DNA from: a virus
Lineage: Duplodnaviria > Heunggongvirae > Uroviricota > Caudoviricetes
Length of the DNA stretch: 64,000 nt
Direction: 5' to 3' (one strand)
Virus record (IMG/VR): IMGVR_UViG_3300045988_163275
Span: 1-64,000 of that record
Program-made: the position numbers and the translations under genes
Shown: positions 16,225-53,244 of the stretch, piece by piece
Layout of the letters: each line of letters opens with the position of its first letter
Numbering within the stretch: position 1 is the first letter of the stretch
Notes under the pieces: generated by a model
What the model was told of the DNA's origin: nothing
Database searches by the model: none
The model's input: the letters and a program-made list of their open reading frames with translations, nothing else

Positions 16225-16746
16225 TCAACCTCTCGTAAAACCTGCTTTCCTTGCTGCTTCAGCTATCGTCTGAGCGAACTGTTTCTCACTGACCTGTGCC
16301 GCTCTTTCAAGGAACAAAGGCCCAACGCGTGGCTTCACACCAGCAACTGGCGGGTTGGTGACGCTCTTCATGCGGGAGAGATAGCCGAGACGATACTTGC
16401 CCAACTCCATGTACTCCGCATAATCGCCAACCTCAACACCAGGGTTCCCTTCGCGCGGTTTAGCCCCAGACACCGATAACTCAATACGCAGCCCCGTATA
16501 GCCCTCTTTGACAACTCTCGCGAAAATCGCGCTTTCGAGTGAGCCAGTCTCCAGCGGAGCCATTGCCCGCGCCAGACGCTCAACCAGACGCGCCAGCTTC
16601 TCCATGTCACGAATGAGATAACGCTTAAAGGCTTTCTGGCTGTTATTGAGTCTGTCGCCAGCACGCTTAAACTGATGCGAGTCATGCTTCAGGCCCATAT
16701 GTTTGCCCCTACTTCCAGATGACCAGGGCGTCCACGTAACCCCCAA
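16225..16746 (-). CDS. head-tail joining / tail completion protein (by position)
   Basis: 173 aa ORF in the head-tail connector block; real start may be the internal Met (MGLKHDSHQF). No motif recognised. Confidence 0.4.
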   Translation of the reverse strand: MGVTWTPWSSGSRGKHMGLKHDSHQFKRAGDRLNNSQKAFKRYLIRDMEKLARLVERLARAMAPLETGSLESAIFARVVKEGYTGLRIELSVSGAKPREGNPGVEVGDYAEYMELGKYRLGYLSRMKSVTNPPVAGVKPRVGPLFLERAAQVSEKQFAQTIAEAARKAGFTRG

Positions 16747-44333: not shown

Positions 44334-45293
44334 ATGTTTGGTAATCTTTTCAAAACGGAAGAAACTAAGGCCCGGGAGGGCTTGGAGTCTCATTATCAGA
44401 AAGTCATGAGCTTCGTTGCTGAAAATGATCTACATGAAGCATGGGAAAAAACACGCAATATCATTTTTCGAAATATGGAAGTTAGAAGCTACATCACGCA
44501 AAACGGCGCGTTCGATCGTAACGATTTTTACTATAAGTCAGCCAAAGAGAAGCTTATTCAAAGCGCCTTCACTTCATACCTACTCATAAAAGTTTTACCT
44601 CAGTTCTATGAAATGCATCTCACCACTTTGAAAAGAAAAGAAAAAACACTCACAACACAGGATGAATACGGGGTCTGGAACTTTGACAAGTGGTTTGATG
44701 AAGTAGACTACTTTTATGACAAGGTAGTAAAAGAGAAAGTTTACGATTGGATCGAAGAGAACACAGGCCGGCTCAACAACCTTTGGTTGGCAGAGTCGGA
44801 GGACAAGAATGCCTGGGGGCGGCCAGTTTACTTTAAATTCCAGTTGCCTGAACAATTTGATCGCTGCGCAATAAATCACATTATGACGGTGGTAGACAAT
44901 ACACCAGAACCTGAATTACCTGAGTACACTTCGCTACTGACCGGGCACGAATATGAGCATTTTGTCGCTGGGGAGTTTATGAAGTATGGATCCGACACCC
45001 AAGTAACTAAGGGCAGCGGCGATCACGGTCTGGATATCCTTGTAACCTATAGAGAAGTTCGAATGGCTGTTCAGTGCAAACACTACCAGTCTAAAGTAGG
45101 CAACAAAGCTATTCAGGAAGCATTTTCCGCGAAACAGTTCTACGATTGCTCCCTCGCAATAGTAGTCAGCAACAGCGAGTTTACCCCTCACGCCAGACAA
45201 GCAGCCAAAAAACTGGACGTTTATCTGTATCACCATGAAGATATACACTTAATAATAGACGCCATTAATAATTGGCTGGATGCGCCGGAGTGA
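44334..45293 (+). CDS. Mrr-type restriction endonuclease domain protein with novel N-terminal domain
   Basis: C-terminal PD-(D/E)xK Mrr-catalytic pattern (GHEYEHFVAGEFMKYG...GSGDHGLDILVT...VQCKHYQSKVGNKAIQEAFSA...VVSNSEFTPHARQAAKK); aromatic-rich N-terminal region of about 200 aa. Confidence 0.65.
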   Translation: MFGNLFKTEETKAREGLESHYQKVMSFVAENDLHEAWEKTRNIIFRNMEVRSYITQNGAFDRNDFYYKSAKEKLIQSAFTSYLLIKVLPQFYEMHLTTLKRKEKTLTTQDEYGVWNFDKWFDEVDYFYDKVVKEKVYDWIEENTGRLNNLWLAESEDKNAWGRPVYFKFQLPEQFDRCAINHIMTVVDNTPEPELPEYTSLLTGHEYEHFVAGEFMKYGSDTQVTKGSGDHGLDILVTYREVRMAVQCKHYQSKVGNKAIQEAFSAKQFYDCSLAIVVSNSEFTPHARQAAKKLDVYLYHHEDIHLIIDAINNWLDAPE

Positions 45294-45328
45294 AGATTGA
45301 GGGGCTAATGCCCCCCCCTATTCGTCGG

Positions 45329-45517
45329 TTAAAAGAACCCGAGGATGCCGCCCACTGGAACAATGAAAACTCCCACGACACGCGCAAGTGTCACTCCGGC
45401 ATGAGACTGGAGATCGCCATCGTTCACAAGTTTCACCAGATTCATGATCCAGCCGCTAAACAAAAAAACGGTAAAGCCAACAATCATCAAGGTGAATTTC
45501 TGGAAGTTCCATTTCAT
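45329..45517 (-). CDS. small two-helix membrane protein
   Basis: 62 aa with two hydrophobic helices (FTLMIVGFTVFLFSGWIMNLV; VVGVFIVPVGGILGFF); ATGA-coupled to the upstream ORF. Confidence 0.4.
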   Translation of the reverse strand: MKWNFQKFTLMIVGFTVFLFSGWIMNLVKLVNDGDLQSHAGVTLARVVGVFIVPVGGILGFF

Positions 45518-45771
45518 ACAATAGCCTCAGTCACAGCAGAAGGAAGATCCGGAGTCGCAGGTCGAGCTGGAATCGTGTCCATCAGCATCCCATCCAGAGA
45601 GACAGGAGGTCGTTCGGGCAGGGGGGTCATCTGCAAGGCCGTGGTGGCAGTGGAAGTAGTTGTGCCCGGCATCAAAAGGCTCTGACCGGCTGGTACGGTA
45701 ACCGCTGCCAGAGTTGCCAAAATCACTCCGTAGGCCATTGGCTTCAGTCGATTTCGTTGAAAATTTTCCAT
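45514..45771 (-). CDS. secreted Pro/Thr-rich small protein (embedded ORF)
   Basis: Start at MENFQRNRLK with RBS AAGGA; signal-peptide-like segment (MAYGVILATLAAVTVPAG) then Thr/Pro-rich tail; lies in another frame inside the 3' half of ORF 45527..46120. Confidence 0.35.
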   Translation of the reverse strand: MENFQRNRLKPMAYGVILATLAAVTVPAGQSLLMPGTTTSTATTALQMTPLPERPPVSLDGMLMDTIPARPATPDLPSAVTEAIV

Positions 45772-46120
45772 GAGAACTGTCCTTGTGTGTCCGGGTTTCA
45801 CGCAAAACACGAGAAGCAACGCTATTACGCACCTTCTCCATGCCTACTGTCGTGCCCAGATTAGCTATGGCGGTAGCTTGCGCATTAATGCGCTTCTCCA
45901 GTTCAAACACTCGTTCTTCCAGTTCCGCAAGGCGTGCGGAAACACGACCACTAAACAGCTCGGTCAGCACCAGGCGAATTGAACGGGGACGTTTATTGAA
46001 AGAAGTGAAAGACGTTTGACGGGCCATGTGGATTCCATTCAGTGTCAGAAAGAGTTGCGGCTGGCCAAGCCGCCTTTTGGCGTTCCATCCTGGAACCGTA
46101 CCTAACCGGTACTTCGTCAT
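45527..46120 (-). CDS. hypothetical protein with coiled-coil segment (overlaps embedded ORF)
   Basis: 197-aa ORF; N-terminal half protein-like with coiled coil (RLAELEERVFELEKRINAQATAIANL); C-terminal half low-complexity and overlapped out of frame by 45514..45771. Confidence 0.25.
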   Translation of the reverse strand: MTKYRLGTVPGWNAKRRLGQPQLFLTLNGIHMARQTSFTSFNKRPRSIRLVLTELFSGRVSARLAELEERVFELEKRINAQATAIANLGTTVGMEKVRNSVASRVLRETRTHKDSSHGKFSTKSTEANGLRSDFGNSGSGYRTSRSEPFDAGHNYFHCHHGLADDPPARTTSCLSGWDADGHDSSSTCDSGSSFCCD

Positions 46121-46152
46121 CCTGACGATTTATAAGATACCTGATTTATTAT

Positions 46153-46174
46153 AGTAGGTAAATACTTACTTATC
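46153..46174. repeat. TAAGTA-type palindrome
   Basis: agtaggtaaatacttacttatc; between rnhA stop and 46120 start. Confidence 0.5.
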
Positions 46175-46177
46175 TTT

Positions 46178-46774
46178 TTATGACAAAAACCCAATGTCAT
46201 GCTTGTGAGGCATATCAGCTGCGGAATAGGCGGCGATCTTCGCCAGACGGTCACACATTTCGTTCTCGCGATGACCTGCATGGCCTTTAACCCACTTCCA
46301 GCGGACATTATGACGACTGGCGGCCGCGTCGAGACGTTTCCAGAGATCCACGTTTTTGACTGGCTTCTTCTCAGACGTGATCCATCCGTTACGCTTCCAG
46401 CCTTTCATCCAGAGCGTCATGCCGTTTTTAAGATACTGGCTGTCGGAATGCAGGATCACGTTGCAGGGGTACTTCAGACGCTCCAGCGCAATCAGGGCGC
46501 CCATCATCTCCATCCGATTGTTGGTCGTGCTGTGGAAGCCCTCAGAAAGCTCGCGCTCTTCGCCTCGATACTGGAGAACGATGCCGTAACCGCCCGGCCC
46601 GCCCGGATTTTTGAGGCAGGAGCCATCACTGAATACTTTTACGGTTTTGAGCTGGGGATTGAACTCGACTACGGGTGTGTTGAAATTGGTACGGGAATGC
46701 TGGTGGGTTTGGCATCTGGCTTTAGACTTCGTGCGGCAGCCAGTGCGTTGCCGGACTGGGTTCTTGGTCGTCAT
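46178..46774 (-). CDS. rnhA: ribonuclease HI
   Basis: Close match to E. coli RnhA pattern ([20 protein letters not shown]...[12 protein letters not shown]...[11 protein letters not shown]...[10 protein letters not shown]...[18 protein letters not shown]); about 40-aa basic N-terminal extension; RBS GGAG. Confidence 0.85.
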
Positions 46775-51241: not shown

Positions 51242-51717
51242 TACGACCTTCTGTATACGATCTGCAAAAAGCCAGGCTCATCCTCATTTGCACGTTGGGT
51301 ATAAGCCGTTTCGACTGGTACGAACCCTAAAGAACGCATCATTGGCGCCGGGAAGAACGCATCCGCGCCCGACACATCCACGCCAATATGCGACAGCCAG
51401 ATCTCTTCAACGTGTGGCATAAAGAGCGAGTAAATCTGCCCGCCACCAATCACCCAGACCGGATCTGGTAGTTTTAAAACGTCATCGATGCCAGCGGGGT
51501 AGAAACCATTGGGGATATAGCCACGAGAGCGCGTCAAAACGAGGTTATGGCGCTCTGGCAGCGGGCGTTTGAGACTTTCCATCGTCTTACGTCCCATCAC
51601 GACAGTGGCGTTTTTGGTGAGTTGTTTGAACAGTTTCAGATCGGTCGGGCAACGCCAGGGAAGTTCGTTGCCAATGCCGATTTCATAGTTGCGGCCGACA
51701 GCTGCAATCATCTTCAT
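51241..51717 (-). CDS. folA: dihydrofolate reductase
   Basis: FolA-like pattern (MIAAVGRNYEIGIGNELPWRCPTDLKLFKQLT...VVMGRKT...VWVIGGGQIY). Confidence 0.8.
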   Translation of the reverse strand: MKMIAAVGRNYEIGIGNELPWRCPTDLKLFKQLTKNATVVMGRKTMESLKRPLPERHNLVLTRSRGYIPNGFYPAGIDDVLKLPDPVWVIGGGQIYSLFMPHVEEIWLSHIGVDVSGADAFFPAPMMRSLGFVPVETAYTQRANEDEPGFLQIVYRRS

Positions 51718-52127
51718 TGGCTTACCTCATAGATGGTTGGTCGCTGGTGAGAATCTGCCAGCGCAGAACGCAGACGCGGATCATGAACCAGTGCGGCGAT
51801 AAGTAAGTCGCCTTTGTGCTCTGCCAGCGTGCGCTTGATATGGGTTTCAAAACTGACACCGCGCGGAACCAGGTGGAGCCAGTCATAATCAATGCCGAAG
51901 TCCTTCAGCCAGCGCTTGGTTGGGCCTTCGAGCGCTTCCGGACGACTACTGATAAGCACCACTTCAGCACCGGAGCGAGCAAAACCACGCAACATGCGGC
52001 TGGTGGGAAAGATGAGTTCATCACCGGCAATGAGAGCGCCTGCATCCGCATCAGGCACTGCTTTGCGATGGCTGGCTCTCGCCAGCACACCTTCAATTTC
52101 ACACAACACATACATCCCTCTGGCCAT
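51714..52127 (-). CDS. hypothetical protein, possibly HAD-like nucleotidase
   Basis: Start at MARGMYVLCEIEGVL, 2 nt after the TS stop; HAD-like first-motif position has E instead of D, so assignment is weak. Confidence 0.3.
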   Translation of the reverse strand: MARGMYVLCEIEGVLARASHRKAVPDADAGALIAGDELIFPTSRMLRGFARSGAEVVLISSRPEALEGPTKRWLKDFGIDYDWLHLVPRGVSFETHIKRTLAEHKGDLLIAALVHDPRLRSALADSHQRPTIYEVSQ

Positions 52128-52128
52128 A

Positions 52129-53244
52129 TCACACCGCCACTGGAACCTTGATCCACGGAAGAGGGCTGTAGCCGCACACCTGCACACCTTCCCATTTGAA
52201 GTCGTCCAGTTCGGCCCATTCATGCGGGAAGATGACAACCGGGTCGGACTCTTTGGGCGGCTCGCACTTCATCAGTTCCTCAACGCCTTCCATGTGGTTG
52301 TCGTAGAGATGAACGTCAAAGCCAAAATGCACGAATGCGCCAGCCATGTGGCCGGTGATCTTCGCGAGGAAGTGGGTGAGAATGCCGTAACCGGCGATGT
52401 TGAACGGCATACCAACAAAGGTATCGACACTGCGTTGAACCAGGCATGAGTTCAGAATGCGTTTCGGGATGCCCAGCTCGTCCAGCATGTTCTCAGTAAT
52501 GCCGCCATCTCTTTCCAGAAGACACAGCATCTGGGTGTAAATGGACTCGTGGCCGTGGCGGTTGTGCTGTATGCCAATGTCGGTGGCCATAGTCAGTCGG
52601 GTCTCAAAGTCCAGCTCGCGACTCCACAGTGAAAACACGAAATGGCATGGCGGCAGCTTCATATCTTCCAGTTCGCCAACATTCCAGGCATTCAGCAGGA
52701 TGCGACGATCTGTAGGGTTGGTGCGAAGCGTGTCAACGATACGCTGTAGCTGGTCAATTTCACGGGACAACACAACGCGATCTTCACTTACGCCCAGATA
52801 CCCCTCGACCTTGTACCCGCGCTCACGGAACGTGTCGATTTTGCGCAGATACTCGCTATGGCTCACGATGCGAGTGTCTTCCCACCGACGCCATTGCTTG
52901 CCATAGACCGGGCCTAAATCGCCATTTTCATCGGCCCAGGCATCCCAGATTTTGACGCCATTGTCTTTCAGGAACTGGATGTTGCCTGTTCCTTTGAGAT
53001 ACCACTCCAGCTCAACCAGTAACGGCTTCAGATTGACGGCTTTTCCGGAGATAAGTGGAACAGATCCGCCCGTCAGCATGTAGTAGGAAGGGACATATGA
53101 AACACTTTTTGTGCCGGTTCCGGTGCGATCACCCGCGTGAACGCCAGTGTTGAGCACCGTTTCAACCACTTTGGCATACGAATCACTGGCAAACTGACCG
53201 TTCGTAAAGTCTCGATTCAGTAGGATAGACAAAATCAACCTCAC
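52129..53244 (-). CDS. thyA: thymidylate synthase (ThyA family) with two insertions
   Basis: DRTGTGT, WADENGDLGPVYGKQWR, catalytic LPPCH, QRSVD, MPFNIAGY all present; two extra segments (about 38 and 50 aa) relative to E. coli ThyA; GTG/TTG start near 53244. Confidence 0.8.
   Translation of the reverse strand: MRLILSILLNRDFTNGQFASDSYAKVVETVLNTGVHAGDRTGTGTKSVSYVPSYYMLTGGSVPLISGKAVNLKPLLVELEWYLKGTGNIQFLKDNGVKIWDAWADENGDLGPVYGKQWRRWEDTRIVSHSEYLRKIDTFRERGYKVEGYLGVSEDRVVLSREIDQLQRIVDTLRTNPTDRRILLNAWNVGELEDMKLPPCHFVFSLWSRELDFETRLTMATDIGIQHNRHGHESIYTQMLCLLERDGGITENMLDELGIPKRILNSCLVQRSVDTFVGMPFNIAGYGILTHFLAKITGHMAGAFVHFGFDVHLYDNHMEGVEELMKCEPPKESDPVVIFPHEWAELDDFKWEGVQVCGYSPLPWIKVPVAV

Follow-up and report, generated by a model that had tools for sequence, protein, structure and literature searches.

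Does a single stretch of phage DNA encode two proteins in two reading frames of the same strand here, and, if so, which parts of each protein does selection see? The question is raised by three small open reading frames (ORFs) in a 64,000-nucleotide stretch of Caudoviricetes DNA (positions 1 to 64,000 of IMG/VR record IMGVR_UViG_3300045988_163275), which as a whole we refer to as the window; the region in question is that of an SSU5-type phage-plasmid. The three ORFs, here called genes A, B and C, all lie on the minus strand of the window. Gene A (45527..46027), recognised as an ORF and by its annotation in relatives, encodes 166 amino acids and is the homologue of SSU5_091 in Salmonella phage SSU5 and of CYRAN_83 in the SSU5-like element Cyrano. 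Gene B (45514..45771), in the +1 frame, encodes 85 amino acids from its ATG. Gene C (45329..45517), the homologue of SSU5_092 and CYRAN_84, encodes 62 amino acids with two hydrophobic helices, and its start overlaps the stop of B in an ATGA. The sequence-only reading of this locus had suspected a true overlapping gene pair, and comparison with relatives bears this out: the embedded frame is under purifying selection, and its start, its Shine-Dalgarno (SD) sequence and its stop/start overlap are conserved. We think it likely that A and B form a real and conserved same-strand overlapping gene pair, to which C is joined as a translationally coupled third gene.

Our comparison set comprised 25 distinct locus sequences representing ten lineages, with A proteins down to about 45% identity to that of the window. 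B was found in all 25, always beginning M-E/D-N/Q/K-F/Y-Q. The ribosome-binding site noted from the sequence, AAGGA (45780..45784, minus strand), lies 8 nucleotides 5′ of the B ATG, and every lineage retains its purine-rich GGA/GGAG core even though the A residues encoded there vary. The B stop falls 13 nucleotides past the A stop in all ten lineages; in nine it lies inside an (A/G)TGA over the C start, and in L028, where C is missing, the same position holds a TAA as the B stop.

The pattern of substitution changes at the start of B. Upstream of the B ATG, the mean pairwise difference by A-codon position is 0.25/0.20/0.47, the normal A-frame pattern. Just downstream it is 0.39/0.19/0.13, which is the periodicity of B because the third position of B is the first of A. 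Judged by these substitutions, selection switches from the A frame to the B frame at the SD and ATG of B. Over the first 35–44 codons of the overlap, the ratio of nonsynonymous to synonymous divergence (dN/dS; Nei-Gojobori method, NG86) is 0.22–0.28 for B and 2.5–3.0 for A. With an overlap-aware estimate that follows the logic of OLGenie, dNN/dSN for B is 0.57 (0.45–0.70) over the whole overlap and 0.41 (0.30–0.52) in its N-terminal part. By these measures, it is the N-terminal segment of B that dictates the local DNA sequence.

Public annotation takes the opposite view. B is missing from every annotated record that we inspected (RefSeq records from the Prokaryotic Genome Annotation Pipeline, PGAP; GenBank submissions; SSU5), and PGAP, the SSU5 authors and the Cyrano re-annotation all list A and C only. 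ORFs of this kind are also easily found: ten same-strand, other-frame ORFs of at least 70 amino acids that begin with ATG lie inside larger ORFs of the window, B among them. The nine others include 16368-16685 within 16225-16698 and 51905-52219 within 51714-52223, both on the minus strand; two of the nine cover most of their host ORF. An embedded ORF alone is thus common, and it is the conservation and substitution patterns in relatives that make B more than chance. That B is a chance ORF, with A and C the sole genes, is therefore extremely improbable: it fits the annotations and the frequency of embedded ORFs of this size, but not the switch in periodicity at the ATG, the opposed dN/dS values of the two frames or an ATG, SD and stop position kept in ten lineages. 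A PHROG family for B also exists, phrog_15659, whose profile B matches at E=2.8e-14, and gene calls for B already existed in 11 protein clusters. We conclude from the comparison of relatives that B is a real protein-coding gene.

What does B encode? The protein begins MENFQRNRLKP, followed by 15 hydrophobic residues between two prolines and then VPAGQ, an arrangement that resembles a signal peptide. Two segments are conserved, A-V-x-[VI]-P-[ATS]-[GTC]-Q and LDGMxxDxI, and the sequence includes the peptides PPVSLDGMLMDTIPAR and PATPDLPSAVTEAIV. The middle of the protein is rich in threonine and proline, and after residue 30 some 40% of residues are proline, threonine or serine. The signal-peptide-like segment and Thr/Pro-rich tail first described from the sequence are thus both present, the former as a basic N-terminus and a 15-residue core. 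AlphaFold2 (AF2) predicted one helix and disorder elsewhere. The hydrophobic core is too short to cross the membrane stably, which, with the −3/−1 rule, makes a cleaved Sec signal the more likely. B is thus predicted to carry a Sec-type signal or anchor segment, more likely a cleaved signal.

Where, then, does A begin, and how far is it read? An outer ORF of 197 amino acids, as originally proposed, does exist when A is read from its first ATG (45527-46120). Its first 31 codons, however, fall in a conserved non-coding leader, and their frame is not kept in relatives. In annotated relatives A is 166 amino acids long in the PGAP-annotated pYLPI6a and 164 in SSU5, with a start that corresponds to 46027 in the window. 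Because the 31-codon extension is out of frame in relatives and lies inside the structured leader, we rejected the 197-residue start and took the conserved ATG at 46027 as the beginning of A. The protein so defined matches the phrog_10411 profile at E=1.4e-83.

The two halves of A differ. AF2 predicted a long helix over residues 17–83 (45779..45979, minus strand), with a block-mean predicted local distance difference test score (pLDDT) of 80–94 over residues 21–60 that falls to 65 by residue 80; residues 84–166 are predicted to be disordered, with pLDDT below 50. This fits the coiled coil and low-complexity C-terminal half that the sequence had suggested. The N-terminus is basic, and the C-terminal half is rich in serine, histidine and cysteine and ends in CCD. 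The DNA of the helix carries an unambiguous single-frame coding signature with third-position periodicity in the A frame, and over the N-terminal 85 codons dN/dS in that frame is 0.26 (NG86). The first 85 or so codons of A encode a predicted helical cytoplasmic domain, probably a coiled coil. Searches of Pfam, NCBIfam, PADLOC and the PDB with A, B and C returned nothing informative; the sole matches in the Pfam, NCBIfam and PADLOC scans were to SlyX-like coiled coils at E=0.02–0.3, which is noise level.

The second half of A, which shares its DNA with B, is the harder case. None of the 25 sequences interrupts the A frame before its shared stop, although the expectation of an open frame, given the B protein and local codon usage, is 0.05–0.19 per lineage. 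Among 162 occurrences of B codons at which a synonymous T would create a stop in A, T was used 0 times, against 38% at comparable positions; p is about 0.02 when the eight sites are each counted once and is lower with independent states (a rough hand estimate). The stop itself is at the same position in ten lineages, where the B frame reads ACT-GAG or ACT-AAG. Taken together, these observations make it very probable that translation of A continues to the conserved stop.

Whether the amino acid sequence of the A tail matters is less clear. The cysteine of a C-x-[ST]-G-W-[DN] motif in A never changes, whereas the B residues encoded at that point do (P/R/T/S and V/A), and changes of L/H and H/P in B are Ser/Ser in A. 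Divergence at B-synonymous sites is 0.27 in the tail, down from 0.47. Estimates of dN/dS in the tail depend on the alignment: one based on the A protein gives 0.53 for A and 0.97 for B, and one based on B gives about 0.75 for both, so the A-favouring estimate is inflated by an alignment built on A and is partly an artefact. Selection on the amino acid sequence of the A tail is plausible, though borderline. The comparison of relatives called for at the outset thus found both frames open and B constrained, and left the constraint on the A protein within the overlap at that borderline.

Several observations weigh against a gene pair in which both products matter along their length. Over the whole overlap, dNN/dNS, which measures amino acid selection on A, is 1.05 (0.81–1.41); in the tail it is 0.60, with an interval (0.34–1.03) that spans 1. 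Amino acid identity in the tail is alike in all three frames, at 0.59–0.63, and the invariant G/W/G/D residues of A may be a by-product of the LDGM motif of B. In many lineages none of the three frames has a stop in the last 45 or so codons, and base composition therefore accounts for part of the openness there. The locus also tolerates damage. Several lineages (L028, L029, the Klebsiella group and L007/L023) have lost or truncated C but retain A and B; the trio is not an obligate unit. Moreover, a frameshift allele is in circulation, in which a one-nucleotide deletion leaves a run of C5 (132 indexed blocks; 80 contigs in the cluster table). In this allele (L115, 801-1307; the tract corresponds to 45621-45626 in the window), residues 1–133 of A are fused to the B tail, B is shifted into the third frame and the Cys-rich tail of A is lost, so that both native tails are destroyed. 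It occurs in independent assemblies: the three loci returned came from three different samples. Since this allele circulates, both tails must be dispensable, at least for plasmid carriage.

These points could be accommodated by supposing that only B is functional in the overlap, with A a coiled-coil protein of about 85 residues followed by a tolerated or neutral extension, or with its frame kept open for coupling alone, to bring A-frame ribosomes to the C start, the encoded amino acids having no role. Such an account would explain the A dN/dS of 2.5–3.0 early in the overlap, the overall dNN/dNS of 1.05, the predicted disorder of residues 84–166, the three open frames at the end of the overlap in many lineages, the tolerated frameshift alleles and an A stop that lies exactly at the C SD. 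It sits poorly with an A frame that is open everywhere against an expectation of 5–19%, with the avoidance of T at stop-creating sites, with Cys, GW and CCD residues that are invariant while B varies, and with the drop in B-synonymous divergence from 0.47 to 0.27 in the tail. The A frame is also intact in lineages without C, which argues against pure coupling. We regard a B-only overlap as rather unlikely. Under the overlapping pair that we favour, the extension of about 80 residues would be translated, mostly as a sequence-free linker dictated by the codons of B, and the last 30 or so residues (C-x-[ST]-G-W-[DN] ... C-C-D) alone may be selected as protein.

The fusion alleles raise a further question, namely whether B is a separate gene at all. 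Other A–B fusions arise at an A4T4 run (45760-45767 in the window). If programmed +1 frameshifting joined the N-terminus of A to the B frame, natural fusions (P0046, P0047 and P0029) at the T4 run (45760-45763) and at a C run in the tract where the window has C6 (45621-45626) would be its trace, and a fusion of coiled coil, transmembrane segment and periplasmic tail would make a plausible bitopic membrane protein. We consider this very unlikely, however, because the homopolymer runs are not conserved across lineages: L020 has TTT, L027 has no run at B codons 3–4, and SSU5-type sequences have ACCCC in place of C6. The B ATG and SD, by contrast, are invariant, with the A residue encoded there varying among H, N and D only through the base outside the ATG, and the periodicity switches at the B ATG and not at a slip site. 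As a separate observation, gene A in L017, P0012 and P0016 is a mosaic, with the N-terminal half of one lineage and the C-terminal half of another, and so recombination break points fall inside the overlapping pair.

How is C connected to this pair? At the coupling junction TGAGGCTATTGTATGA (45514..45529, minus strand), the A stop (45527-45529), the C SD (GAGG) and the overlapping B stop and C start (45514-45517) are packed into 16 nucleotides. The TGA of A lies 9 nucleotides 5′ of the C ATG and forms part of the C SD (TGAGG), and the TGA of B overlaps the C ATG. This geometry is identical in every lineage that has C, which, together with the two hydrophobic segments of C, agrees with the ATGA coupling to a 62-residue two-helix protein seen in the sequence. 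Synthesis of C would thereby be tied to termination in both upstream frames. A and C share a reading frame, three codons apart (TGA, then GGC TAT TGT). Loss or read-through of the A stop, which is TGA or TAA depending on the lineage, would yield an A–C fusion.

C belongs to a widespread family. A tblastn search of annotated phage records with the C of the window found two SSU5 records only. Residues 5–62 of its 62 match the phrog_6006 profile at E=5.2e-20, and an exhaustive profile search collected 188 representatives of 55–70 amino acids at E≤1e-3; all 22 distant members sampled match phrog_6006. The family is widespread in temperate phages and also occurs in strictly lytic ones. Three of the 22 weakly match N_methyl, and some of the distant members P0091, P0092, P0105, P0117 and P0126 are prepilin-like (K/Q-G-F-T-x-x-E-L), with weak matches to N_methyl and TIGR02532. 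In SSU5-type members the Gly and Glu of this motif are gone. A prepilin identity for the C of the window was rejected, as its start, MKWNFQKFTLMIV, has no Gly and no Glu at +5. Of the 170 neighbours that lie on the same strand as a C-family gene on 64 other viral contigs, most are genes of DNA metabolism (replication and recombination): DNA polymerases, exonucleases, annealing proteins, ligase, primase/helicase and HNH nucleases. Lysis enzymes account for two of the 170, one endolysin and one amidase.

The layout of A and B recalls the embedded spanin genes Rz/Rz1 of lambda, in that a short +1-frame ORF lies in a coiled-coil gene, the inner product combines an export signal with a mature part rich in proline, and both frames are conserved. 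The likeness is confined to gene layout. In lambda the outer protein has a transmembrane helix and the inner one a lipobox; here neither feature is present, there are no holin or endolysin neighbours, and B passes the A stop by 13 nucleotides and is coupled to a third gene. The maximal 19-residue Kyte-Doolittle mean of A is 0.5–1.0 across the ten lineages, where about 1.6 is needed, and AF2 placed no hydrophobic helix at its N-terminus. Over its first 40 residues, B contains no lipobox of the form [LVI][ASTVI][GAS]C in any of the ten lineages, and in seven of them it lacks cysteine altogether. The sequence-only reading was therefore correct in holding that this is not a canonical Rz/Rz1 pair.

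Its further suggestion of an unusual lysis accessory did not survive. SSU5 has its own holin, endolysin and Rz-like spanin genes at 27.5–29.0 kb, roughly 50 kb from the A and C homologues at 80.0–80.7 kb, and the SSU5 spanins are listed in the spanin catalogue (PMC6139136). Nothing in the window matched the SSU5 lysis cassette. A non-canonical embedded spanin pair or lysis accessory, with C a holin or antiholin, would suit the embedded +1 frame, the coiled-coil outer protein, the exported Pro-rich inner protein and the two-helix membrane protein. It is nonetheless highly improbable given an A without a transmembrane helix, a B without a lipobox, the catalogued spanins of SSU5 and the DNA-metabolism neighbours, with so few lysis enzymes, at the 64 C-family loci.

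What, then, controls the three genes? Between rnhA and A lies a predicted structured 5′ leader of the A/B/C transcript (46044..46126, minus strand; about 83 nucleotides), identified by conservation and covariation. Across the ten lineages it is more conserved than the coding sequence. Its predicted fold has a long-range helix, GUCAGGAUGA/UCUUUCUGAC, around three hairpins, the last of which is terminator-like. In the fold, 98.8% of cells are paired, with six compensatory pairs, against 34–50% paired in slid controls. A search of Rfam with 45200-46400 found no family; the only hit, c-di-GMP-I at E=0.33, was below threshold and taken as chance. We regard the leader as a possible new cis-regulatory RNA or attenuator. 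Upstream of it, just after rnhA, is a tentative sigma-70 promoter (TTTACC, 17 nucleotides, TATCTT; 46134..46162, minus strand). Both hexamers are kept in all ten lineages, and the spacer is 17 nucleotides in the three in which it was counted (the window, L002 and L018). With 8 of 12 consensus matches, the candidate falls below the threshold of the scan tool, which did not report it. A, B and C would all be made from one transcript, with this weak promoter and the structured leader.

Published expression data come from Escherichia coli LF82, which carries Cyrano. After overnight growth in LB medium, CYRAN_83 (A) and CYRAN_84 (C) were at local background (PMC9928086), and in one LF82 condition the two rose modestly together with TciA/TciB (PMC9928086). 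This would fit a single operon under repression in the lysogen. Because the homologues are near background in this lysogen (PMC9928086), a lysogen-expressed role in exclusion or addiction is unlikely, and we rejected a lysogen-expressed moron or addiction module on the same ground. Nearby, Table 1 of PMC9928086 puts CYRAN_81, a 44-residue ORF upstream of rnhA (L113, 2358-2492), at 12-fold over local background in lysogenic LF82; it is possibly a gene or RNA expressed during lysogeny, within a block that is otherwise silent.

The sequence-only reading had also suggested an exclusion or membrane-toxin cassette. A toxin cassette of the hok/mok type has to be considered here: the upstream frames and the leader would gate a membrane toxin, C or B, for addiction or abortive infection. 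The locus shares with hok/mok/sok its out-of-frame overlapping ORFs, stop/start coupling to a small hydrophobic protein and a conserved, highly structured leader, and a variable defence-type island lies next door (with an Mrr-like nuclease, Ant or TerB). It differs in that its ORFs are much larger, in the lack of a Hok-family match and of an antisense RNA in Rfam, in its silence in the lysogen and in the dispensability of C. Neither B nor C matched a toxin family in Pfam or NCBIfam, or a PADLOC model, and no antisense RNA is known. C has been lost repeatedly without loss of A and B, and its family also occurs in strictly lytic phages. We judge a toxin cassette to be quite unlikely.

The element in which the locus resides is common. 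A 1.1-kb query around A, B and C matched 319 plasmid records from Escherichia, Enterobacter, Klebsiella, Salmonella and Citrobacter, and phage SSU5 with 90% identity; a more sensitive search mode raised the number of plasmid records with the locus to 681. Among 5426 complete E. coli genomes, 233 carry it, nearly always on a plasmid. A profile search of genome contigs with A gave three loci only. A/B/C is part of the SSU5-type phage-plasmid backbone. A literature search on the SSU5-type locus found no paper with a title or abstract on A, B or C. PHROGs gives phrog_10411, phrog_15659 and phrog_6006 no functional annotation, and does not record phrog_10411 and phrog_15659 as two frames of the same DNA.

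Directly downstream of C lies an accessory island that varies across relatives (the window, SSU5, L002 and L018-L021). In the window it holds an Mrr-like restriction endonuclease (44334-45293, plus strand; Pfam Mrr_cat at E=2e-21, ZorD-like PADLOC hits); in SSU5 it holds an Ant anti-repressor, and in many E. coli and Klebsiella relatives TerB/TciA with DUF3927/TciB. In many relatives C is thus followed directly, on its own strand, by homologues of tciA/tciB, the TerB-like genes that in phage P1 belong to the early lytic, C1-controlled ban operon. They are absent from the window, where the opposite-strand Mrr-like nuclease takes their place. P1 itself was rejected as an analogue, with no A/B/C homologues upstream of its tciA.

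What might such a module do? We tentatively place A/B/C in the lytic cycle, as a module acting on the cell envelope, because it is silent in the lysogen, lies amid replication genes and genes of the TerB/TciA type, and has a B that is predicted to be exported and a C that is predicted to be membrane-embedded. T4 Imm and Sp and HK97 gp15 are small inner-membrane or periplasmic proteins that block DNA injection. The module would resemble these, as an injection block or a form of envelope protection with A as a cytoplasmic partner. In common with them it has an inner-membrane protein of about 60–80 amino acids with two helices and a small exported protein, encoded outside the lysis cassette. B and C have, however, no detectable sequence or profile similarity to Imm, Sp or gp15, and T4 imm and sp are non-overlapping genes without a coiled-coil partner. 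That the guess at function is drawn from analogy only counts against it as well. It is more doubtful still that A/B/C is a previously undescribed lytic-cycle envelope system, for instance a new superinfection or injection block or a membrane protection device, in which a Cys-rich A tail and an exported B would be made from the same DNA and gated by a novel leader RNA.

Overprinted phage genes are a known phenomenon, and this instance of it is new. As we read it, the locus is a clean case of segmental dual coding, in which constraint on either frame would fall where the other has freedom to vary. SSU5-type phage-plasmids are frequent among Enterobacteriaceae of clinical and animal origin, and B is a conserved backbone gene of these elements that annotation has missed. 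The locus also offers a handle on phrog_6006, a widespread family of uncharacterised small phage membrane proteins.

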